Source of the DNA: Vampirovibrionaceae bacterium NZW_1234
GTDB taxonomy: Bacteria > Cyanobacteriota > Vampirovibrionia > Vampirovibrionales > JAGQHJ01
Reading direction: 5' to 3'
Length of the DNA: 61,064 nucleotides
Assembly (NCBI GenBank): GCA_041697335.1
Contig: JBGUGD010000017.1
Span: 1-61,064, forward strand
Position 1 is the stretch's first letter; each line of letters begins with the position of its first letter. Made by a program: the position numbers and the translations under genes. A model generated the notes under the pieces. That model was not told the DNA's origin. It ran no database searches and saw only the letters and a list, made by a program, of their open reading frames with translations. Of the stretch, positions 6,386 through 47,061 are shown one piece after another.

Positions 6386-7516
6386 TCACGCCGTTTCCTG
6401 TTCCCAGCGGGACTTGGTGCTGATAAATTCCGTTAAATCTTGAAGACGCAGGATGCCCAAAAGCCGATTGTCAATGGTAATGATAAGGCTTGTTTGCCCA
6501 CTGGACTGCATCTTTTCCAGGGCTTCGGAAACATCGCTTTGCGGTGTGGCTTGGGCATCCACGGGGCATGATTTCGCCAGGTCCGAAACATGATGTTTGG
6601 TCCATTCCCGGTGTGGAAGTCGCTTGATCTTGTTAATGTCCACACAACCCTTGAGTTCGCCGTCCTCAACAATGGGAACCGTGCTGGGCTGATGCCGGTA
6701 AACGATATTCTCTACAAAATCAGAAAGTGTCATGTTGGGCGGAACCGTAATGGGATTGGTTTGCATGAACTGACTGACAGGCAAGCCCTTCAAGTATTGC
6801 CGTACTTTTAACTGTTCGTAAGCACCGTTGGCCGACATACGTAAAAACGCACCCAATAAAATCCACCACAAACCGCCAACAAATAAGCCGGTGGCAATGC
6901 TCACCAAGCCCAGGATGATCAATGCCCAGGCAAACCAGGCTCCCATACGAGAGGCAATTTTGGTTGCCCAGTCCAGTTGCCCTTTCCATTGCCATAAAAT
7001 CGAGCGAAGAATACGCCCGCCATCTAAGGGAAAGGCCGGTACAAGATTAAAGATGGCCAGAACCAGGTTTATCATCCCCAGATATTGGCTGAGCGCAATC
7101 AGGGGAATCGGTAGTATCGATTGACTGGCAATAATATAGAACAGCCCGGATAAAACAAAGCTGGTGATGGGACCGGCTATTGCGATCCAAAATTCCGATT
7201 TGGGACTGGAGGGCTCTTTAACCAGTTCTGCTGCACCACCAAAAAGAAATAACGTGATACCCTGGACACCCAAACCATAGCGTCTGGCAACCAGCGAATG
7301 GCAGAACTCGTGAATAATGACCGAGGCAAACAACCCGAGAGCTCCGGCAATACCTAATACCCAATACGTATTATTTGCGAGGCTCGGGTAGTTATTCGGA
7401 AAATACCCTGCTGCTAGGCTCCAGGTAACCAGTGCAACAATAATAAACCAGCTGGGATGTAACCGAATCGGAAATCCGAAGACTTTAAAACTCCGCTTTT
7501 CTGCTTCAGTAGTCAT
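6386..7516 (-). CDS. site-2 protease (peptidase M50) with C-terminal CBS pair
   Basis: HEFCH, IAIAGP and FNLVPAFPLDGG motifs, multiple TMs, CBS-like C-terminus. Confidence 0.93.
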   Translation of the reverse strand: MTTEAEKRSFKVFGFPIRLHPSWFIIVALVTWSLAAGYFPNNYPSLANNTYWVLGIAGALGLFASVIIHEFCHSLVARRYGLGVQGITLFLFGGAAELVKEPSSPKSEFWIAIAGPITSFVLSGLFYIIASQSILPIPLIALSQYLGMINLVLAIFNLVPAFPLDGGRILRSILWQWKGQLDWATKIASRMGAWFAWALIILGLVSIATGLFVGGLWWILLGAFLRMSANGAYEQLKVRQYLKGLPVSQFMQTNPITVPPNMTLSDFVENIVYRHQPSTVPIVEDGELKGCVDINKIKRLPHREWTKHHVSDLAKSCPVDAQATPQSDVSEALEKMQSSGQTSLIITIDNRLLGILRLQDLTEFISTKSRWEQETA

Positions 7517-7692
7517 AAATTCGCTTCTCCCCTCTCCTGGTGTTTATTCTACCTGAGGTGATTGGGGCAATGTATTGGTTAGTATTGCTAAATCGATGTG
7601 ATGGCTCAGGACTAATAAATACGGTAAGAACCCGGTAAAACGCAAAGGCAATGACCGGGTTCTTACTATTAATAATACAAACTGTTCTCTTA

Positions 7693-8337
7693 CTAGGGAT
7701 AGGTCGCTTGAACAACCCCATTTTCATCTAATAGCATTTCAGAGGTTCCAATGGTTACGGTTCGCCAGCCCGCTGGCACTTGTCCGGTGGGCATTGCAAC
7801 GGTTCTTTCATTCCCCGGGCCCAATACGGCTGTTTGCTCCGATACTGGTGCTAGAGGGACACTGAAGGCCAAGGGTGCCGGGACCGTATCCGGAATATTG
7901 GCGATATCTGTCGTTGGTGTTGTCCCCAGGTTAAATGTGACCGTGGGCGAGTAGTTGTCTTCCAGGTCCGGCATCCGAACTTGCTTGTCAATCACAAGAA
8001 TTTGCGCCCCTTTGGCTACGGCTATTTTATTGGGGTGTGGTGTCAGGTTGCCGCTGGCATCGCGCATCATAATTTCAGGTTGGTTTTGCTGATTGATGGA
8101 CAACACCTCATTGGCATCAAACTCATGTGAATAGTGAAGATCCACGCCCCCATCGTTGCGGGGAGTGACTTCAACAATTTCAACACCACTGCTGAAATAA
8201 AAATCTTGATTACTGATACCGTTACTGCTGGAGATTCTACCTTGTGCCCATGCCAATGGGCTGGAGAGCAAGGTAATACTTCCCAGCGCAACCAAGGCCG
8301 TGGGTATAATTCGCATATTCATGACGCGCTTCCTCAT
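7693..8337 (-). CDS. secreted hypothetical protein
   Basis: Sec-type signal MRIIPTALVALGSITLLSSPLAWA; beta-rich mature region. Confidence 0.7.
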   Translation of the reverse strand: MRKRVMNMRIIPTALVALGSITLLSSPLAWAQGRISSSNGISNQDFYFSSGVEIVEVTPRNDGGVDLHYSHEFDANEVLSINQQNQPEIMMRDASGNLTPHPNKIAVAKGAQILVIDKQVRMPDLEDNYSPTVTFNLGTTPTTDIANIPDTVPAPLAFSVPLAPVSEQTAVLGPGNERTVAMPTGQVPAGWRTVTIGTSEMLLDENGVVQATYP

Positions 8338-8467
8338 TGCTCTTCTTCATGTGTATTTGCCTGTTGGGTATGCTACCCATCATAGATTTGTTTTAGTGCT
8401 TTACCCAGTATAAACGGGGATGATACGCCTTGGGGGCTACGTACTGGCTAATCCGGTTGAGGCATAT

Positions 8468-8713
8468 CTATGCCAGCCTGAGCAATTTCAATAACGCGTT
8501 TTTCAAATGAATAAGCCGGTTTCTCAACGAGGTATTCGGCTTTGGATTTAATATAGCGTCGGTTTCTTCAGGGAACTCTGCGAGGTAGCGGGCGACAATT
8601 TCGTCGTAATGTTCTCCCGTCATTTCAAGAACGCGCTGTTTATCCTTTTCAGAATAAGTAACACTGCGGCTAGGCGCTTTAAGCACGATGTTGTTGTTTC
8701 TGCCCGCTGTCAT
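8468..8713 (-). CDS. hypothetical protein (81 aa)
   Basis: ATG 8713 with AAAAGG upstream; no motif. Confidence 0.45.
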   Translation of the reverse strand: MTAGRNNNIVLKAPSRSVTYSEKDKQRVLEMTGEHYDEIVARYLAEFPEETDAILNPKPNTSLRNRLIHLKNALLKLLRLA

Positions 8714-9004
8714 GTAACCTTTTTGGCCTAAGAAACGAATCACGATAAAACGAATTCTCCCTGTCCTTACCATAATCAGCCGCCGGAGGGTCGACACTAC
8801 TATAACCGATGAGGCTGATTTTATAAAGATGAACGATTAACATTCACCCGTTCACAGATTGTCATAAGCTTAGATGAGTCCGATAGCCGATTTAACAATC
8901 CCATTCATTCGATGTGTGAGCAATGGCAAATTCGTTGTTCTTTGCCATAGTGGTATTGGATCACAAGTCATCCAAGAAAATGGTTGTGTTTGGAGGAGAA
9001 GCCA

Positions 9005-9682
9005 ATGCTCACGTTTAAGCATGGGTTTTTGCTGACCGTTGCCATGGTGTTGCTACTGTGGGGACTGGTTGCGTGTCAATCATCAGAACCCGACAGAGAC
9101 AGTTTGTCCAATCAGAAACGTGTTTCTCAAAAAGCAGACAACGAACATATGGTATCCAACCAGGCCTCTTTGGTATCTCAGGCATCTTCTTTGGCGGTCC
9201 GTCTTGAGCCTGGGAAAGATACTGCTTATTATTTACGTGAATTCTCTAAATCAGGCTATATTGTGGTGCGTGCCCATGAGTGGCAGGACGGTATCGAATT
9301 CGAGGTGCAACACCTTAGTGGCTCTCCAAAGGCGCTGGTGTTTTTGTTGAAGCCGGGGCAATTGAATCGTGTGTCTCGTATCGAAGTAATTCCAGTGCAT
9401 CACTTTCCCCATGAGTTTCCCGAGCCTCAAGGAAGAAAAGTCACTGAATTTAAACTTCAGGAAACGATCGAACAATTACCGCTCAACCAGGCGCTTCGGT
9501 ATTATTTGCCGGTGTTCCACAAACTCGGGCGGATTGAAGAATATCGTATGGAAGCGTCAGAAGCCATTTACCGGCTAGAGGTTAACGATCAGTATTATCG
9601 GGTGCGTCTGACCCTGGATCCCGAAACAAATTTAGTGAACCGGATTTTGATGGATCAACGTGTTATCCGATTTTCCAGCTAA
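9005..9682 (+). CDS. putative lipoprotein
   Basis: GGAGGAG RBS; hydrophobic leader ending in lipobox LVAC. Confidence 0.7.
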   Translation: MLTFKHGFLLTVAMVLLLWGLVACQSSEPDRDSLSNQKRVSQKADNEHMVSNQASLVSQASSLAVRLEPGKDTAYYLREFSKSGYIVVRAHEWQDGIEFEVQHLSGSPKALVFLLKPGQLNRVSRIEVIPVHHFPHEFPEPQGRKVTEFKLQETIEQLPLNQALRYYLPVFHKLGRIEEYRMEASEAIYRLEVNDQYYRVRLTLDPETNLVNRILMDQRVIRFSS

Positions 9683-9688
9683 TAAATA

Positions 9689-10123
9689 CTAATAGCCGAT
9701 TTGTCGATGCTCGTTTTGGGCAAACAAGGCTTTGACAGCAGGGCGTGTCAGTAAAAATAAAGCCCAGATTCCAAAAATAGTTCCGATGGGAATATTCAAA
9801 CATTGAAATAGTGCCACACCTATACAATAAAGCCGATGACGGCGCTGCCCAAGCCACAGGCCCGCTAATAGGTAAACAATGGCTAAGGCGGCCATGAACA
9901 TAACAAATACCGTCATGGAAGGCGGCATATTTTGGGGCCCATAGGTCTGCAGGAAGAGATTCGGGTTAATGAGGGCGATGAGTAAGAGTAAAATGGACAT
10001 GCCGCACATCAGATAAAAATACATGGACAGGATTTTTAACTGGATCACCTCTTTATCACCTTGATTCGAATAGTGCTCACGTCCACCTGATTGCTCAGAT
10101 GGTTTGTTTTCCGATGGATCCAT
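9689..10123 (-). CDS. membrane protein
   Basis: GGAGGGG RBS; three to four hydrophobic segments, P.GT..GIW.L..L motif. Confidence 0.75.
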   Translation of the reverse strand: MDPSENKPSEQSGGREHYSNQGDKEVIQLKILSMYFYLMCGMSILLLLIALINPNLFLQTYGPQNMPPSMTVFVMFMAALAIVYLLAGLWLGQRRHRLYCIGVALFQCLNIPIGTIFGIWALFLLTRPAVKALFAQNEHRQIGY

Positions 10124-10283
10124 GAAACACCCCTCCATTACATCCTGAACTTTTATTATGGGGTCATTGTCATTAATTTACCGTTCACCGGGTATCGGAT
10201 TGTGGGGGTTTTTAATTCAAGCATGATGCAATGACTCCTCACTTCAACAAGTTCGGCACACATAGAAAAGCAGAAGGGCCACA

Positions 10284-11288
10284 TCAATGGTGTGATAGAA
10301 TCTCAGCATACTGGGCCGCATCGACATTTCCGCCCGAAAGGATAACACCCAGTGTTTTTCCAGTGGCATCCACGTGATTCCCCAAAAGCGCCGCCAATGC
10401 GGCTGCACCACCGGGTTCCACAATCAGTTTTAAATGCTGAAAAGCCTGTTGCATGGCATGGGTCACTTCTGCGTCCGACACAGCGACAGTCTTATCAGCA
10501 AGCTTTTGAAGAATCGGAAAGGTCAGCTTGCCAGGCTCTAAAAGCATGAGAGAGTCACATAAAGTGGACGCTTCAGGGTTAATACGCTGTCGACTGCCTT
10601 TGAGAAGTGATAATGCCATGTCATCATACCCTGCAGGTTCCACGAGGATGACCTCGGTACGGGGAGATAACGCTTTGAGGGCCGTTGCACAGCCTGCCGA
10701 TAATCCTCCTCCGCTACAGGGGATAAGAACAGCGTCCATTACAATATTTTGTTTTTGTGCAAATTCGATGAGTTCCAAGGCAACCGTGCCCTGGCCCGCC
10801 ATAATCTGTGGATGGTCATATGGCGGGATTAATGTCGCATCCCGCTCCCGGCAAAGTGCATCTGCAATCGCTTCTCGGGAGTCTGTGCGGCGGTTATAGA
10901 AAACGACTTCGGCACCAAAGGCCCGGGTACCCTCGATTTTCGTCTTGGGGGCATCTTCCGGCATGACAATCAGCGCCGGAATTTGAAAACATTGGGCCGC
11001 TGCGGCAACGGCTTGGGCGTGATTACCCGAGGAATAAGCAACAACTCCCCGAGTTCGAATATCTTCGGGTAACTGGGAGATTAAGTTGAAGGCACCTCGA
11101 AACTTGAAGGAGCCAGTCCGCTGGAGGATTTCGGTCTTAAACAGCAGGCGCCCGTTGTATTGCTCATTTAGACAGGGCGATTCAAGTACAGGGGTAACAA
11201 CGTGATGACCTTGTAAGCGTTGGGCGGCCTCTTGAATTAATTCAAGAGTGACAGGGGTATCCACGGTGGGCATCTGGGCTGCGGACAT
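10284..11288 (-). CDS. PLP-dependent threonine/serine dehydratase (serine-racemase-like, no regulatory domain)
   Basis: LQRTGSFKFRGA (PLP lysine), SSGNHAQ, GQGT, SGGGL, SGGN. Confidence 0.93.
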   Translation of the reverse strand: MSAAQMPTVDTPVTLELIQEAAQRLQGHHVVTPVLESPCLNEQYNGRLLFKTEILQRTGSFKFRGAFNLISQLPEDIRTRGVVAYSSGNHAQAVAAAAQCFQIPALIVMPEDAPKTKIEGTRAFGAEVVFYNRRTDSREAIADALCRERDATLIPPYDHPQIMAGQGTVALELIEFAQKQNIVMDAVLIPCSGGGLSAGCATALKALSPRTEVILVEPAGYDDMALSLLKGSRQRINPEASTLCDSLMLLEPGKLTFPILQKLADKTVAVSDAEVTHAMQQAFQHLKLIVEPGGAAALAALLGNHVDATGKTLGVILSGGNVDAAQYAEILSHH

Positions 11289-39832: not shown

Positions 39833-40331
39833 GGATGAGGGGGCTTTTGGGGTGAGTAAAACCGATGTTTAAACGGGAGGATTTTACTCGATTTCACTCC
39901 GGTTGGGGTTTTGGGGGAGGTGAGTTATTTTTATTTTTGCGATTTCACTTATTTTTGCTCAATTTTACTCAATTTTACTCATTTTGTTGGGGATGATGAG
40001 GGTTTTAGGGGAGGTGAGTCATTTTTTATTTTTGCGATTTTGCTCATTTTATTGGGCATGATGGGTTTTGGGGGAGGTGAGTCATTTTTATTTTTTCAAT
40101 TTCACTCATTTTTGCTCATTTTTACTCATTTTGTTGGGGATGATGGGGTTTTGGGGGAGGTGAGTCATTTTTATTTTTTCAATTTCACTCATTTTTGCTC
40201 ATTTTTACTCAGGTGCTGATTTCTAAGGGGTTCTATTCTTGGTTGCTTCCAGGGCTTTGGGGATGAATGCATCTTGAGGGTGAGCAATTTTTATTTTTTC
40301 AATTTCACTCATTTTTACTCATTTTTACTCA
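39833..40331. repeat. nested tandem repeat array (64-94 bp units containing 10-bp sub-repeats)
   Basis: Units start near 39905, 39999, 40063 and 40145, with degenerate copies at 39833 and 40276; consensus GGGGTTTTGGGGGAGGTGAGTCA-T-rich-(AWTTYRCTC-type decamer)n-ATTTTGTTGGGGATGAT. Confidence 0.92.
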
Positions 40332-41588: not shown

Positions 41589-41790
41589 TTCGTTCTTTCT
41601 CAAGCTTTCGGCTTGAGGTTGGAAGGAAGTTTAATAATAAATGTTGCTAATGCGCTATTTAAGCCTTTGGTGTCTTTGAGGTGACTCTAAATATTATCGC
41701 TGGCGAAATCATGGCTTGAAATACAATGGCGTGCCTAGTGACGCTTGTGCACTTAAAGTATCTACTAGTGAGTACTTAACTCAAATAAAG

Positions 41791-42073
41791 CAAGTTTACC
41801 TTTTCCCTGGCACCTCTATACAGGGTCACTACATGACCATTATATGGCCCTTTCGTAAGGTTGTTGAAGCAGCCGCTCTAGATCCCTATGAGATAGCTCG
41901 GCACACGTTTCGCCATACGACATCACGCACCTTGTCCAAGCTGGAATCGAATTGCCTACTGTGCAAAGAATCTCAGGGCACAAATCCTTTCAAATGGTTC
42001 AGCGATACAGTCACCAGAACAGCCTCATATTGAAGCGGCTATGGAGAAGTTAGAACAGCATTATTCAATATGA
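41791..42073 (+). pseudogene. tyrosine recombinase/integrase C-terminal remnant (two frameshifts)
   Basis: HTFRHT, then frame change to ITHLVQAGIELPTVQRISGHKSFQMVQRYSH (HxxR, GH and catalytic Y), then frame change to HIEAAMEKLE. Confidence 0.85.
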
Positions 42074-42075
42074 GT

Positions 42076-43011
42076 TTAAGCCGCATTTGCTGATGACATA
42101 AGTTCCGCTAACTTTCTCTTCCAACCTTGTGAGTGTATGATGCGAGCCAAATGATATTTATTATTTAAGATCTCTGCTTTTGTTAATTGGGAGAACGCCT
42201 GCCAATTCTTTCCAAATACATATATCGCATTGCCTTTTTGAATACTTTCCAAAATTACCAGGTTTTTGGTAGAAAATACATATGCTAGATAATCCGAAAA
42301 GCCGCCCTCGCCCATATAAATCTCATTAGGCAGATAGGCTCGGATTGTCTCTTGTCGATCTGCAATAACTGTTGCAGTTGCTTCGGAGCGTTTTTTTAAT
42401 AGATTAAGGTAGCGTTCAACATGTGGCCATGGATCTTCACCTGGTGGTAATAACCTCCATCCTAAGCGCTTGATTGCAGGTTCGGCAAATTTGGTTAAAT
42501 CAGCTTGAACTAGATCGCAACTGCCAAAAAGCTCCAAGAACAAGTTGACGGTATGGCGGATTATTTCATGCTCTTCCGGATTGTGATGGAAAACCCGCGA
42601 CACAATGAAACTCTTTTCATCGATTTCAAGGTAAGAAATCTCAATCGAGGGAGGTGAAATAAGTTCTCGGGGATAACAGTTGCGAAAAATGTCCCGAAAA
42701 TCTTCGTGTTCTTCGACTTCACCACCACCAGCCCATTGCTTCCATTGCCACCATACAGTACGGATATACCGACTTTCCTTGGGCTTGTTTCTATGGAGTA
42801 GCCATTTCCCTTCAGAGTTGAATCGTGAGACGGACCCAATAGGAAACGGTAACAGCGTGTCGCCGTTAGATGGAGTGTCCGTGAAGCCTATCCGTGTAAG
42901 TTTATGTTGCGAATCTTGGTCGATTAGAAAAACTATTCTTAATGCACCATTTTGAGGCACCCCAGCTAGTCTGGAAAGAATATTGTTCACTCGTCTGTTT
43001 TCGATGTGCAT
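42076..43011 (-). CDS. conserved hypothetical protein (311 aa), second gene of the DUF3892 operon
   Basis: GAAAGG RBS; Trp/Pro-rich blocks SRFNSEGK, YPRE..PP, NLFLELFG, W..LPPG..PW, LES...GNA.Y.F, RIIH...W. Confidence 0.85.
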   Translation of the reverse strand: MHIENRRVNNILSRLAGVPQNGALRIVFLIDQDSQHKLTRIGFTDTPSNGDTLLPFPIGSVSRFNSEGKWLLHRNKPKESRYIRTVWWQWKQWAGGGEVEEHEDFRDIFRNCYPRELISPPSIEISYLEIDEKSFIVSRVFHHNPEEHEIIRHTVNLFLELFGSCDLVQADLTKFAEPAIKRLGWRLLPPGEDPWPHVERYLNLLKKRSEATATVIADRQETIRAYLPNEIYMGEGGFSDYLAYVFSTKNLVILESIQKGNAIYVFGKNWQAFSQLTKAEILNNKYHLARIIHSQGWKRKLAELMSSANAA

Positions 43012-43062
43012 AATGTTACCTTTCTATCTTTGCTGCCAAGGGAAGGCAAAGCCTTCCCCCAT

Positions 43063-43341
43063 TTAGTTCACACACTCGGGAAGAGAGAGAAGATTATTAG
43101 GTGTTTCGCCATCAGATTCAGTCTTAATGTACCGATTCCCATAGGGAGAGGTTGCTGTAATAACCCAGGCCGTTGAGCCACCTCGTTGTACGTAAAACCG
43201 ATGCGCTCCCGAATCAATGAAACGAACAATTTCTTGTTGCTCATATCGCTGTGAGCTACCTTCGAGACCGACAAATTGGATTCTTTCATGAGGATTTTTG
43301 CGTTCATCCTTGTGGATGCACGTAATTCGATAAGTACCCAT
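43063..43341 (-). CDS. DUF3892-family protein
   Basis: ITCI.K, FYV, Y.KT..DG...NNLLSLPEC signature; AAGGAG RBS. Confidence 0.85.
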   Translation of the reverse strand: MGTYRITCIHKDERKNPHERIQFVGLEGSSQRYEQQEIVRFIDSGAHRFYVQRGGSTAWVITATSPYGNRYIKTESDGETPNNLLSLPECVN

Positions 43342-43483
43342 TGATGAGCACTCCTTTCTGGTTTAAAATTCCTATATACATATTTTTGGGGTAGGCTTTT
43401 TGTTGAGCCTGCCTTTTCTTTGGTAACACCAAGCTATCCTGCTTAGTTTTTCTCCTTACCTAATCTGACTCTAACTGATTTTC

Positions 43484-43537
43484 ATCATACAGGCGCTTGG
43501 GTGTTTTTGCAACGTTCTTGGATGAGAATGGTATAAT
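43484..43537. promoter_or_regulatory. back-to-back divergent sigma70 promoters
   Basis: Minus: TTGCAA(43507-43512)-17 bp-TATGAT(43484-43489). Plus: extended -10 TGgTATAAT (43529-43537). Confidence 0.65.
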
Positions 43538-43594
43538 TGAAATAAGAATACATAGCTGTTTTTAGGGCCTTGTGAAGGTTTAAGGTGGTTAACA

Positions 43595-44035
43595 TTGCTT
43601 AATATTGATGGGATTCAAATAGGTGAGCGGCTTCGGATTGTGCGTGAAGACCGAGAATACTCTGTCAATGCCCTTGCAAGGCTAGCCGATATCAGCGCTA
43701 GTTATATATCTGATCTGGAGAATGGTAAAAAGGCCAATCCTTCTATAAAAGAGCTGGTAAAAATATGTAAAAGTCTTAATATTGGCCTTGATGTGCTTTT
43801 AGATGCAGGTAGATTCTCTCAGTTTAAGAACAAATCGGCTTTGGTGATACCAAATAGTCTGGTTCCATTTCTTGAAAATGGGACAATTACTTTGAGGCAG
43901 GCAAAAAAAATCTTGGAGATGTTTCCTGCCGAGACTGAAATTGCTGCACGTAGTGGTTCTGTAGAAGCTCGAAGCTCAAATTCTTGGGAAAATATCATCA
44001 AAGTCCTAAAAGAAGAAGGGGTTCTGGATGACTGA
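43595..44035 (+). CDS. XRE-family HTH transcriptional regulator (CapH/ImmR-like)
   Basis: IGERLR..RE....S...LA.LA.IS.SYISDLENG...NPS...L.KI...L. Confidence 0.92.
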   Translation: MLNIDGIQIGERLRIVREDREYSVNALARLADISASYISDLENGKKANPSIKELVKICKSLNIGLDVLLDAGRFSQFKNKSALVIPNSLVPFLENGTITLRQAKKILEMFPAETEIAARSGSVEARSSNSWENIIKVLKEEGVLDD

Positions 44036-44984
44036 TGGTGATTTGAATAAGTGGAGAGCAAAGTACGCTAACGCTTCACCAGAAGTTCTTTCTTTTCTTT
44101 CGTCTTCAGCTTTTAAGAGGCAGGTTATCAAGAAGTTTGTTTGGGAGTACCTTAGCGAAGGTCCTCATCTGAGTTATGTGGAATATGAGGAATCTGCCTA
44201 CTTACAAGAGCTTGCCTGTGTAATTTCTACAGAATTAGAAGAAGGCTACTTGCCACCACCGCAAGTGGGGCGCCTGCGATATAATCCTGAGGGAAACACA
44301 AAATTTGTGGCAACTGCTAGCAGTTTATCTACTCCGGCGCGAAAGACGTTTACTTGGTGTCATGAGATGGGTCACGTCCTTCTTGGTTTATATAAATCTG
44401 TGCCCATTGAATACAGAGACTCTCTTCATTCTGATATTTTAGAGATGGACGAATCTGTAGTTGAAATGATGTGTGACATTGCGGCTTCTTACATACTGTT
44501 TAGGCCTGATATAGTTCAACCGCCTCGTTGGGAAGATTTTGTTGAGTTTGAAGACAACGTTCAAAATTATCAAAACAGACATACTGTCTCATATTGGGCT
44601 TCCGCTAGGTATTTGACCGAGAATAACCCGCATCCAAGTAGCCTGATTATGTGTAAGCCAGGTTATCGAAAAGAAGAAATGAGACATGTTCAGTCCAGCC
44701 AAGTGAAGTTACCTCTGGGGATTAGTATGGGGCCACATAAAAAGCTCCGGGTGACTCAGAGTATAAGCTCTATAAACATGGAATATGTTCCCCTTAACAA
44801 ATCCTTGAATCCAGATTTGGTGCAAGGTGAAGGCGATGATATGCAATTCAGTTTCACTGGTCCGATTGAACTCTCACTGGCAGATTTATTTGCAATAGAT
44901 AAGGGAAGCAGTGAAATGTATCGTGTATATTCTTTGCCTTGGTATAAAAATATACCGACACTTTTGATATCTCAGAAAACTTAG
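44028..44984 (+). CDS. ImmA/IrrE/CapP-family zinc metallopeptidase
   Basis: R..FT..HEMGH, E..CD..A..IL, HTH-like linker (VS..A.ARYL), long C-terminal domain; start overlaps the HTH stop by 8 bp. Confidence 0.88.
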   Translation: MTDGDLNKWRAKYANASPEVLSFLSSSAFKRQVIKKFVWEYLSEGPHLSYVEYEESAYLQELACVISTELEEGYLPPPQVGRLRYNPEGNTKFVATASSLSTPARKTFTWCHEMGHVLLGLYKSVPIEYRDSLHSDILEMDESVVEMMCDIAASYILFRPDIVQPPRWEDFVEFEDNVQNYQNRHTVSYWASARYLTENNPHPSSLIMCKPGYRKEEMRHVQSSQVKLPLGISMGPHKKLRVTQSISSINMEYVPLNKSLNPDLVQGEGDDMQFSFTGPIELSLADLFAIDKGSSEMYRVYSLPWYKNIPTLLISQKT

Positions 44985-45039
44985 TTTGTGGGTAGGGCCT
45001 TTTTTGTTACTGTTTATTCTATGCGTGTAGGGAAATCTT

Positions 45040-45567
45040 ATGCAAGAAATCCATCTGGTTAATCAGGCATTACAAATTAATCAGCCGAAGGACTTATTTG
45101 ATTATCTTGTGGGAGCTACAACTCCATTAATTGCTCTATTGGCGGCATTCTTTGCATTTTGCCAATGGCGTACTTATCAAAAACAGTACAGAGCGATGAT
45201 TACCGATCGGATAGTAAAGAATTATGAGAAGCTGTCGAAGGCTCAAGGGTATATTATTAAACACGGAAACATTGATTTCGAGCATTTTCGTTTATTAGCC
45301 TTAGCTTTAGATGAAGCGAGGGTCTGTTTATCTCCTGAATTGGTTGAATACTTGAAAGCTATATACAGCAAAGCAGGGAGATTGTTAGAAATTCCAGATC
45401 TGATTAATGAGAAAAAAGAGCAAATTGAGGAAGTTGGAATAAAAGAAGAGGAGAAAAGTCGGTTAATCCAAGAGCGTAAGGTATTACATGATGAAAAAAG
45501 TCTACTTTTAAGGGAATTCATATATGCAGAACACTACAAGATTTATCGAAAGCTATTGGTAGCGTAG
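45040..45567 (+). CDS. hypothetical protein, single N-terminal TM plus helical domain
   Basis: PLIALLAAFFAFCQW hydrophobic segment, charged helical remainder. Confidence 0.7.
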   Translation: MQEIHLVNQALQINQPKDLFDYLVGATTPLIALLAAFFAFCQWRTYQKQYRAMITDRIVKNYEKLSKAQGYIIKHGNIDFEHFRLLALALDEARVCLSPELVEYLKAIYSKAGRLLEIPDLINEKKEQIEEVGIKEEEKSRLIQERKVLHDEKSLLLREFIYAEHYKIYRKLLVA

Positions 45568-45630
45568 TAGTTTCTTTAAGATTTCGTATTCTTCTAGACA
45601 ATTCTTTTCTTGCGAACACAGGAGCAACAC

Positions 45631-45780
45631 AGAGCTTACCGATAACCCGGTTAAGTGATTTAAGATAATCATTGCAGAACCTAACAGCCAGAAGCACTCA
45701 TGAACATCTGCATATCGTTCATATCGGATAACAAGCTTTCTAAACATTTCCAGCCAGCTGAAAACCTGGATTGAAGACCA
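45631..45780 (-). pseudogene. IS5-family transposase C-terminal remnant
   Basis: FSWLEMFRKLVIRYERYADVHECF..L matches the IS5 DDE C-terminal F.WL..FR.L..RYER motif. Confidence 0.75.
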
Positions 45781-45848
45781 TTTCCAACATCGCTATCACA
45801 GTACATCAGAAGCGAGAATCTCCAAAAATGATTTAATTAAACGTTAGG

Positions 45849-45904
45849 CTATTAAAGGATAATATGCTATCCTTTAATAGTGAGGGTGTCTTATTAAAGG
45901 ATAA
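45849..45904. promoter_or_regulatory. putative operator upstream of the Fic gene
   Basis: Perfect 13-bp inverted repeat CTATTAAAGGATA-N6-TATCCTTTAATAG plus a third half-site TATTAAAGGATAA at 45892-45904. Confidence 0.7.
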
Positions 45905-45906
45905 GT

Positions 45907-47061
45907 ATGTCAAACCCGACAGAAAGTAGATTAGGGCATTATTTAAAGGTCACTACCATGGGGGAAAGCTTTAACGCATTTGTCCCTCCGCCCTTGCCTC
46001 CCGATCCTCCAGTGAGTATAGCTGGACTTGAAGTACTTTATGAACGCGCTTCCCAAGCTTTGGGCAGATTGGACACGCTGCTGGGTTCTCTGCCGGATAC
46101 CAGTTTGTTTCTGTATATGTATGTCCGAAAAGAGGCGGTTCTCTCCTCCCAGATTGAAGGAACTCAGTCCTCTATTTCGGATTTGCTGTTATACGAGACG
46201 AAAGAAGCTCCTGGTGTGCCTGTGGATGATGTGGAAGAGGTTTGTCAGTATGTCGCTGCCATGAATTATGGGGTGAGTCGTTTAAAAGAAGGCTTCCCGC
46301 TTTCTCTTCGGCTCCTTCGGGAAATTCATGGGGTCTTAATGGCTTCCGGTCGCGGTAGTGATAAATTGCCCGGAGAGTTTCGCCGCTCCCAGAATTGGAT
46401 TGGGGGAACTCGACCCGGAAATGCCTTTTTTGTTCCCCCGCCACCCGAACGCTTAATGGAGTGTCTGGATAATTTTGAGAAATTTCTTCACGACGAAACG
46501 ACATCAACACTTTTGAAAGCCGCTATTAGCCATGTCCAGTTTGAAACCATTCACCCTTTTCTGGATGGCAATGGCCGCCTAGGACGCCTCCTGATTCCAT
46601 TCATCTTAATGGCAGAAGGCGTTCTAACCGTACCCGGGTTATATTTGAGCCTCTATTTTAAAAAGCATCGCTCTGACTACTTCCGTCATCTCCAAGAGGT
46701 GAGAGAACGTGGTGCTTGGGAATCGTGGCTTGAATTTTTCCTTACTGGCGTTGTAGAATCCGCTCAGCAAGGTGTAGGAACTGCCCAGCAAATTATTCAA
46801 TTGTTTGAAGCTGATAGGGTTAGGATAGAGACATTAAAACGAGCCAGAACCTCGGCTTTGAGGCTATACAGCTATCTCCAAAAGCATCCGATTGTTTCAG
46901 CCAGAACTGCTTCTACAGAGATCGGTCTGTCTTTTCCGACAATCCTGGCGAGCCTGAACCACCTGAAAGATTTGGGTATTGTCGAAGAAACTACCGGCAA
47001 GCAAAGAGATCGCCTGTTTGTGTATCAAAAATACTTGCAGATCCTCCAGGAGGACAGTTGA
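45907..47061 (+). CDS. Fic-family protein (Fic N-terminal + Fic + C-terminal wHTH; SoFic-like)
   Basis: HPFLDGNGRLGR catalytic motif; SSQIEG inhibitory motif; C-terminal E.TG..R.R.F.Y..YL. Confidence 0.95.
   Translation: MSNPTESRLGHYLKVTTMGESFNAFVPPPLPPDPPVSIAGLEVLYERASQALGRLDTLLGSLPDTSLFLYMYVRKEAVLSSQIEGTQSSISDLLLYETKEAPGVPVDDVEEVCQYVAAMNYGVSRLKEGFPLSLRLLREIHGVLMASGRGSDKLPGEFRRSQNWIGGTRPGNAFFVPPPPERLMECLDNFEKFLHDETTSTLLKAAISHVQFETIHPFLDGNGRLGRLLIPFILMAEGVLTVPGLYLSLYFKKHRSDYFRHLQEVRERGAWESWLEFFLTGVVESAQQGVGTAQQIIQLFEADRVRIETLKRARTSALRLYSYLQKHPIVSARTASTEIGLSFPTILASLNHLKDLGIVEETTGKQRDRLFVYQKYLQILQEDS

Follow-up and report, generated by a model that had tools for sequence, protein, structure and literature searches.

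A 61,064-nt stretch of DNA from Vampirovibrionaceae bacterium NZW_1234 (contig JBGUGD010000017.1; the whole stretch is called the window throughout) carries two divergent gene pairs at positions 42,076 to 44,984: an operon for a 92-residue DUF3892 protein and a 311-residue protein, and an overlapping pair for an XRE-family helix-turn-helix (HTH) protein and an M78 metallopeptidase. By full-length sequence comparison, the 311-residue protein is almost certainly a homologue of Rhea, a single-gene anti-phage system of lactococci, and we put the probability that the locus is an inducible Rhea-type defence at roughly 0.7. A preliminary description of this DNA had proposed an undescribed anti-phage module whose larger protein belongs to no recognised family. 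The anti-phage role of the window copy is very probable, whereas the module cannot be called undescribed. The absence of a family holds for four libraries of hidden Markov models (HMMs), a weak ZorC match aside, while the literature does contain Rhea. The locus is not a new system: it is a Rhea-family gene with a CapH/CapP-like switch and a swappable small first gene.

Results

Homology of the 311-residue protein to Rhea

Rhea was described as a 303-residue single-gene anti-phage system without InterPro or HHpred matches and with a TnsE-like C-terminus, the published model reaching Z 6.2 against the C-terminal domain (CTD) of TnsE (Grafakou et al. 2024, PMC11381338). The efficiency of plating in its presence is ~1e-6 to 1e-8 on TP901-1 and all 11 listed Skunaviruses, c2 and P335 form smaller plaques, and LC3, Dub35A and 63301 are not affected. 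Rhea acts after phage DNA entry and its phenotype resembles abortive infection. Escape mutations map to the terminase ATPase domain (Mosterd et al. 2025, PMC12184496). According to a 2026 review, phage replication, transcription and translation are unaffected by Rhea; the review suggests that a later step such as packaging is blocked and lists the mechanism as unknown (PMC13064643).

The reference Rhea sequence was identified by primers and length in a Lactococcus cremoris locus (L138) and was not taken from the record of pUCCL617. In this locus a 303-codon open reading frame (ORF) begins and ends with 20 nt that agree exactly with the gene-specific portions of the two Rhea cloning primers (0 expected from 200 shuffles), and because of these matches at both ends the ORF was taken as Rhea or a near-identical allele. 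BLASTP aligned the 311-residue protein with it at 94/309 identities (30%, E 4e-51), and an HMM of the family matched the ORF with E 5.6e-86 over positions 1-305. The window protein and Rhea are identical at 30 of the 33 family-conserved positions checked, the differences being G42/K, F238/Y and E255/D, and the nine invariant columns of a 143-sequence alignment are all present in both. A plasmid search with the 311-residue query returned 20 records, among them L. cremoris 303-residue ORFs that aligned with 99% of the query at 30% identity.

Relatives of the 311-residue protein accounted for 355 matches among 1,061 candidates, and at E<=0.001 the family comprised 2,055 cluster representatives, of which 385 also passed E<=1e-30. 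Its distribution across genomes is patchy (2/61, 3/401, 5/301, 1/201 and 1/201, each count including the centre genome). Searches of Pfam, NCBIfam and PHROGs with the 311-residue protein yielded no family, these three libraries and PADLOC 2.0 have no model of the Rhea family, and sequence searches of the PDB gave no significant match; the best ESM Atlas score, 0.83, is a lead only. The comparison carries Rhea beyond dairy plasmids into a wide family and names a small set of invariant residues.

The divergent HTH and peptidase pair

Upstream of and divergent from the operon, the XRE HTH gene is followed by the gene for a HExxH M78 peptidase. The earlier suggestion of a CapH/CapP-like pair was borne out: the PADLOC models capH and capP matched the two proteins, and at 38 of the 64 loci compared below a divergent pair likewise precedes the effector gene. 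The peptidase carries the motif HEMGH (H112-H116) together with E146, and a Tyr occupies the position of the CapP switch cysteine. Its Pfam M78 match (E 8e-4) falls below the curated cut-off. Sequence searches of the PDB returned three matches only, CapP and two IrrE proteins, with E 0.013-0.049, and the nearest Atlas clusters were M78 proteins of 289-328 residues with scores of 0.96-0.97. The length of 318 residues fits a peptidase-HTH-GAF architecture, of which the HMM matches cover the peptidase and the middle part only. We consider it highly likely that the pair controls the DUF3892-Rhea operon.

Gene neighbourhoods of the Rhea family

Loci were collected from genomes (41), metagenomes (63), viruses (2), regions from whole-genome searches (7) and nine of the 20 plasmid matches. 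Loci with a full-length homologue numbered 87, or 81 without identical proteins; 17 of these were dropped for short flanks, and 64 with 1 kb or more of upstream sequence remained. A divergent HTH and peptidase pair lies directly upstream at 38 of the 64 loci, two have a co-oriented fused HTH-peptidase and 24 have neither, as called by regulator HMMs that were trained on 20 loci of the same set; Pfam independently calls HTH_3 and M78 in the scanned subset. Near-copies remain in this sample, and three regulated loci (L003, L008 and L013) have split regulator genes. Among 36 classified peptidases of regulated loci, 24 are long, five short, one fused and six truncated or otherwise different. The regulated cases include a distant family member, L130, and a fused form, L131.

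Co-oriented fused HTH-M78 proteins of ~410 residues are encoded upstream of Rhea homologues at L001:5192-6418 and L120:4366-5601, a second mode of pairing with this type of regulator. The distant member L130, from a genome of the same class as the window, shows the window's layout at 7139-10188, with an integrase, a Rhea-like gene, a YjzC-like gene and divergent HTH and M78 genes, which suggests that the same arrangement was reached independently. A rapid maximum-likelihood tree of 65 proteins grouped the window copy with regulated homologues that are mostly alphaproteobacterial (SH-aLRT 92, not starred) and placed lactococcal Rhea elsewhere. Mapped onto this tree, the regulated state changes 11 times, at least five of the changes being forced by starred branches.

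These neighbourhoods bear on an alternative in which the HTH/peptidase pair is a relic, the ImmR/ImmA switch of an integrative element that has decayed, and the Rhea-like gene is constitutive cargo beside it. An integrase remnant indeed flanks the locus, the unit at L130 also adjoins an integrase, the window pair is not close kin of the pairs at homologous loci, and lactococcal Rhea works without a regulator. However, the divergent layout recurs at 38 of 64 loci, in several branches and with long, short and fused peptidases. Moreover, the remnant of the integrase gene is found past the 3' end of the Rhea-like gene and is encoded on the other strand, so it is the DUF3892-Rhea operon that faces the repressor. 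We regard the relic switch as improbable.

Unregulated homologues were seen in defence contexts. Lactococcal Rhea (L138) and the homologue at L143 stand beside Type ISP restriction-modification (RM) genes, and the homologue at L129 occurs with a Type I RM specificity subunit and with AAA and HNH genes. At three unrelated loci (L135, L140 and L145) Rhea homologues lie directly beside pairs of an OLD-like ATPase and UvrD, a Gabija-like combination. At L134:5931-10331 a homologue sits between a prophage integrase and cI and adjoins a protein with DUF4041 and T5orf172, presumably itself a defence protein.

The small-gene slot ahead of the Rhea-family gene

The preliminary description had treated DUF3892 as one half of a two-gene effector; this did not survive the comparison. 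An HMM built from five DUF3892 proteins found the family at 0 of 133 other loci in six-frame translations, duplicates and short contigs included. The best scores, E 0.16-0.17, came from two related loci, and the one checked was a Phd/YefM antitoxin; the control locus that did score with the HMM belonged to its training set. The slot instead holds DUF2188 at 14 of the 38 regulated loci (three further confirmed by Pfam), a YjzC-like gene at L001 and L130 (below cut-off) and a KTSC gene at L140, and is empty elsewhere. We conclude that DUF3892 is an exchangeable and dispensable accessory.

It is accordingly very improbable that DUF3892 and the 311-residue protein form an obligate two-component module, either toxin-antitoxin or sensor-effector. 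The two genes are co-oriented and 51 bp apart, and the slot often holds a small gene, as such a module would have it. Against it stand the missing DUF3892 at the 133 other loci, the absence of DUF2188 from 24 of 38 regulated loci and the protection conferred by Rhea as a single gene; likewise, none of the four DUF3892 plasmid loci inspected has an annotated Rhea-sized gene directly downstream, and one has HTH and ImmA/IrrE genes upstream. In the latter, on a Nitrosospira plasmid (L147:2805-4276), DUF3892 lies directly 3' of the co-oriented HTH and ImmA/IrrE genes and the record ends just past it; DUF3892 thus travels with this type of regulator.

The switch ahead of a DUF3892 operon had a precedent: the study of Lau et al. 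(10.1101/2022.04.27.489752), citing Burroughs and Aravind 2020, already describes CapH/CapP upstream of operons with DUF3892 and with DUF2188, and its example of 'DUF2188 + hypothetical proteins' may be a locus of the Rhea kind. According to another description, DUF3892 resembles double-stranded RNA-binding domains and HPF and may be a sensor of viral RNA or of modified ribosomes (10.1101/2025.01.14.632903).

Two predicted domains and a probable link to ZorC

The AlphaFold2 model of the 311-residue protein, computed from the 143-sequence alignment, has a mean predicted local distance difference test score of 90.6 and a predicted template-modelling (TM) score of 0.62, with two domains predicted confidently and a linker of low confidence between them. 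A homodimer prediction scored 0.00 against a mark of 0.42, which is evidence neither way. The best structural matches of the N-terminal domain, a UvrA interaction domain and an ATP-grasp lid (Z 5.4-6.0), lie within the range of common arrangements. For the C-terminal domain, an integron cassette protein (Z 6.3), ZorC (Z 5.6; residues 190-310, 113 aligned, root-mean-square deviation 3.7) and the TnsE CTD (5d16, Z 5.5; residues 185-311) are tied in the range of common folds, the TnsE value being middling like the published one for Rhea. Where the ligand of a structural neighbour is known (ZorC, the TnsE CTD and the MotA CTD), it is DNA. Foldseek searches of the PDB and of viral models gave nothing at E<=0.001, and rows for beta-pore toxins were rejected as only the long hairpin matched (TM ~0.1).

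ZorC was singled out among the tied matches because of the sequence evidence. The PADLOC model of ZorC alone matched the window protein (E 0.01), and no other PADLOC model matched as many family members (15 of 143 proteins at E<=0.1, best E 3.4e-4). With hhalign the C-terminal domain aligned to 12 ZorC-family proteins over 73 columns (E 5e-4, probability 30%, or 10% with a narrower alignment), and an HMM built from the EH region of ZorC scored at least 5 bits in 65 of 269 family proteins versus 1 of 2,229 background ORFs. In the reverse search four ZorC proteins ranked at the top and several others fell within background, and no family member passed the Pfam EH_Signature model. The conserved residues of the C-terminal domain are R219, Y241, E255, N261, Y264, K278, R290, H293 and W297; position 255 is acidic, H293 present and positions 278 and 290 basic in 100% of the alignment. 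E255, N261, Y264, H293 and W297 fall on the acid, the GNA-x-aromatic motif, the His and the Trp of ZorC, and in Escherichia coli ZorC E400 and H443 are required for sequence-independent binding of double-stranded DNA and for defence (Hu et al., PMC11946911). Taken together, these individually weak but agreeing data suggest that the Rhea C-terminal domain is probably a true homologue of the ZorC EH-signature domain, which would tie the two defence domains together.

The C-terminal domain also occurs behind an IF2_N-like domain (L041:1411-3483, L109:5146-6456, L112:3675-4934, L115:4780-6414, L116:5149-6411 and L118:934-2040), with C2H2-like fingers in the fusions of L041 and L115, and at the ends of tandem 445- and 453-residue proteins whose N-terminal parts matched no assigned domain (L133:7735-9069 and 9111-10469). 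From these fusions and the tandem we conclude that the domain is a mobile unit. Most fusions have Asp at the E255 position, a D-x-x-R-L motif in the fused forms parallels ZorC D332/R335 by eye, and a Phd/YefM antitoxin gene follows a related fusion in L113. Longer fusions (546-2000 residues) were found in 0 of 203 candidates, a weak negative as a 691-residue fusion was found another way.

The fusions are also the starting point of an alternative in which the C-terminal domain is a toxic enzyme directed at RNA or ribosomes, causing dormancy or suicide, with DUF3892 or DUF2188 as RNA or ribosome sensor and terminase escape as an indirect effect. IF2_N is the partner in six of the ten fusion or partial candidates scanned, some of them with the C2H2-like fingers, the sensor role proposed for DUF3892 would fit (10.1101/2025.01.14.632903), and the invariant Arg, Lys, His and Tyr residues with the acid could form an RNase site. 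This reading conflicts with the unaffected phage transcription and translation reported in the review (PMC13064643) and with the DNA-binding structural neighbours. No RNase of the RelE or barnase type appeared among the 50 VIA-align matches listed, which does not exclude one. The IF2_N-like matches may, we assume, be merely small helical domains that bind nucleic acid. On balance, a toxic RNA- or ribosome-directed enzyme appears unlikely.

Layout of the locus and the island

The features are listed in Table 1. The four ORFs, the AT-rich island, the integrase and IS5 remnants and the Fic gene had all been recognised in the preliminary description, and the ORF map, the GC content, Pfam, PADLOC and, for the IS5 remnant, the identity to annotated transposases agree with it.

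Table 1. Features of the locus and its surroundings, in window coordinates.
Feature	Position	Strand	Evidence or remarks
Rhea-family gene, 311 residues, two domains	42076..43011	-	BLASTP to Rhea; AlphaFold2 model
N-terminal domain, residues 1-172	42496..43011	-	small alpha/beta core, long Trp-rich beta-hairpin (79-112)
C-terminal domain, ~residues 184-311	42079..42462	-	TnsE-CTD-like, ZorC EH-signature-like
Hairpin, GC-rich, 8 bp, between the two operon genes just past the DUF3892 stop	43040..43058		
DUF3892 gene, 92 residues, first in operon	43063..43341	-	PF13031 E 2.5e-17
Divergent control region, 253 bp, 37.5% GC	43342..43594		hairpin at 43388-43415
XRE-family HTH gene, CapH/DdrO/ImmR-like, 146 residues, TTG start	43595..44035	+	HTH_3 E 3.7e-14; PADLOC capH E 3.5e-10
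M78 (IrrE/CapP/ImmA-like) zinc metallopeptidase gene, 318 residues	44028..44984	+	PADLOC capP E 9.5e-13, residues 67-215; Pfam M78 E 8e-4
ORF of 175 residues, co-oriented, 3' of the peptidase gene	45040..45567	+	weak Pfam matches only, below cut-off
Tyrosine-integrase C-terminal remnant, broken gene	41892..42053	+	PF00589 E 2.8e-7; convergent with the Rhea-like gene
IS5-family transposase remnant	45553..45792	-	50-52% identity over 44 residues to annotated IS5 transposases
SoFic-like Fic gene, island edge	45907..47061	+	PADLOC SoFic E 1.5e-119

The four ORFs are open at these coordinates, with starts or junctions inspected. The HTH and peptidase ORFs overlap by 8 nt, and purine-rich stretches resembling Shine-Dalgarno sequences precede the starts of the 311-residue protein, DUF3892 and the HTH protein. 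The hairpin between the operon genes is a possible attenuator or mRNA stabiliser. Signals resembling terminators (4 found, 3.6 expected) and promoters (10 found, 9.7 expected) are at chance level in the region, and a repeat search for an operator in the divergent region found none. Positions 41620-45900 have a GC content of 40.7%, compared with 52.1% and 53.2% in the flanks; no tRNA was found near the island, and the IS5 remnant had no match in Pfam.

The 175-residue ORF has a hydrophobic helix at its N-terminus and resembles, by eye, L130:13033-13758. Fic-family genes occur near Rhea homologues in the window and on two plasmids (L141:4165-5394 and L146:10088-11671). Window positions 39860-40330 are T-rich and their translations repeat several times, which suggests a degenerate tandem array with units of ~80 bp.

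Discussion

The reading of the locus as an inducible Rhea-type defence can be put as a sequence of steps. By analogy with CapH/CapP, the XRE protein would repress the divergent promoter, and single-stranded DNA (ssDNA) arising from damage or phage replication would activate the M78 peptidase, which would cleave the repressor. Judging from the layout, DUF3892 and the Rhea homologue would then be expressed, and the Rhea protein alone may block the phage after DNA entry, as shown for lactococcal Rhea only, most likely at a late stage of phage development, probably packaging. Lastly, the domain resembling TnsE and the EH region of ZorC may bind packaging intermediates, e.g. terminase-engaged ends or concatemers, and the DNA may be stalled or damaged through the surface formed by R219, Y241, E255, N261, Y264, K278, R290 and H293. 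Terminase escape without triggering by terminase, together with the TnsE/ZorC-like domain, points to packaging-motor-engaged DNA being sensed or attacked; that the Rhea homologue acts on DNA at the packaging stage is a tentative proposal to which we give somewhat short of even odds.

Several observations weigh against the inducible Rhea-type reading or parts of it. The window locus is known from sequence alone, and the Rhea that was tested is only 30% identical, belongs to another branch and works without a regulator or an accessory gene. It has Asp where the window protein has Glu at position 255, and sk1 terminase expressed alone did not trigger it (PMC12184496). The regulator is missing at 24 of the 64 loci and present at 36 of the 50 close but 2 of the 14 distant ones, so that the 59% regulated reflects the sampling of close homologues. 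The CapP sequence matches of the window peptidase end at about residue 215 and residues 215-318, the putative GAF part, are unmatched; searches of the protein database and plasmids returned no close relative other than the peptidase itself, and phmmer gave no match between it and the first 41 loci. Since the peptidase lacks a close relative, the window pair was probably swapped with the layout kept. The ZorC link is weak test by test, with an hhalign probability of 30% and a Z of 5.6 tied with unrelated folds, and the defence neighbours of unregulated copies are anecdotal, having been counted without a control.

A wider proposal would join these elements: the Rhea C-terminal domain and the ZorC EH domain would be one mobile family of DNA-engaging and possibly catalytic modules, Rhea would attack terminase-engaged DNA, a large branch of the family would be wired to ssDNA-sensing CapH/CapP, and DUF3892, DUF2188 and the YjzC-like and KTSC proteins, small and nucleic-acid-binding, would be swappable tuners. 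As a whole this proposal is doubtful. If true, the damage signal that induces prophages would also arm a packaging block against induced temperate and incoming phages. On the main reading, an inducible Rhea-type defence, Rhea would join the effectors under CapH/CapP-type control, and the question of why a late-acting defence should be damage-inducible would become testable.

Within the open literature, a scope outside which most subscription journals and the bioRxiv supplements lie, no paper was found that joins Rhea to ZorC or to CapH/IrrE, and 'EH signature' together with phage led to the Zorya papers and a genome report only. A CapH/CapP-controlled Rhea branch and a relation of Rhea to ZorC would be new within this scope; the operon type may already be contained in Burroughs and Aravind 2020 or in the supplements of Lau et al.

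Comparison with known systems

DdrO/IrrE and ImmR/ImmA share the repressor-peptidase logic of the window pair but control a DNA-repair regulon or the excision of an element and not an adjacent defence gene. ZorC of Zorya type I aligns with the window protein at the acid, the GNA-x-aromatic motif, the His and the Trp, with only ~120 residues comparable; unlike the window protein, it is a ~560-residue part of a four-gene membrane-motor system. A scan of six proteins of the locus and the map of its flanking ORFs showed none of zorA, zorB and zorD and no Zorya type I operon.

The CapH/CapP systems share the order of HTH and M78 peptidase genes, divergent from and upstream of a defence operon, and CapP is known to be activated by ssDNA (Lau et al., 10.1101/2022.04.27.489752; Calloji et al., 10.64898/2026.05.16.725639). 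The window effector is Rhea-like and not CBASS, the peptidase is divergent in sequence with an unmatched putative GAF region, and it has no switch cysteine, a residue present in 33% of CapP proteins. The DUF3892 example of Lau et al. contains two DUF3892 genes, unlike the window operon. With Rhea the window protein shares full-length homology, size and the TnsE-like C-terminal domain; the lactococcal gene follows a Type ISP RM gene as a single gene with no regulator, whereas the window copy is accompanied by a CapH/CapP-like pair and DUF3892.

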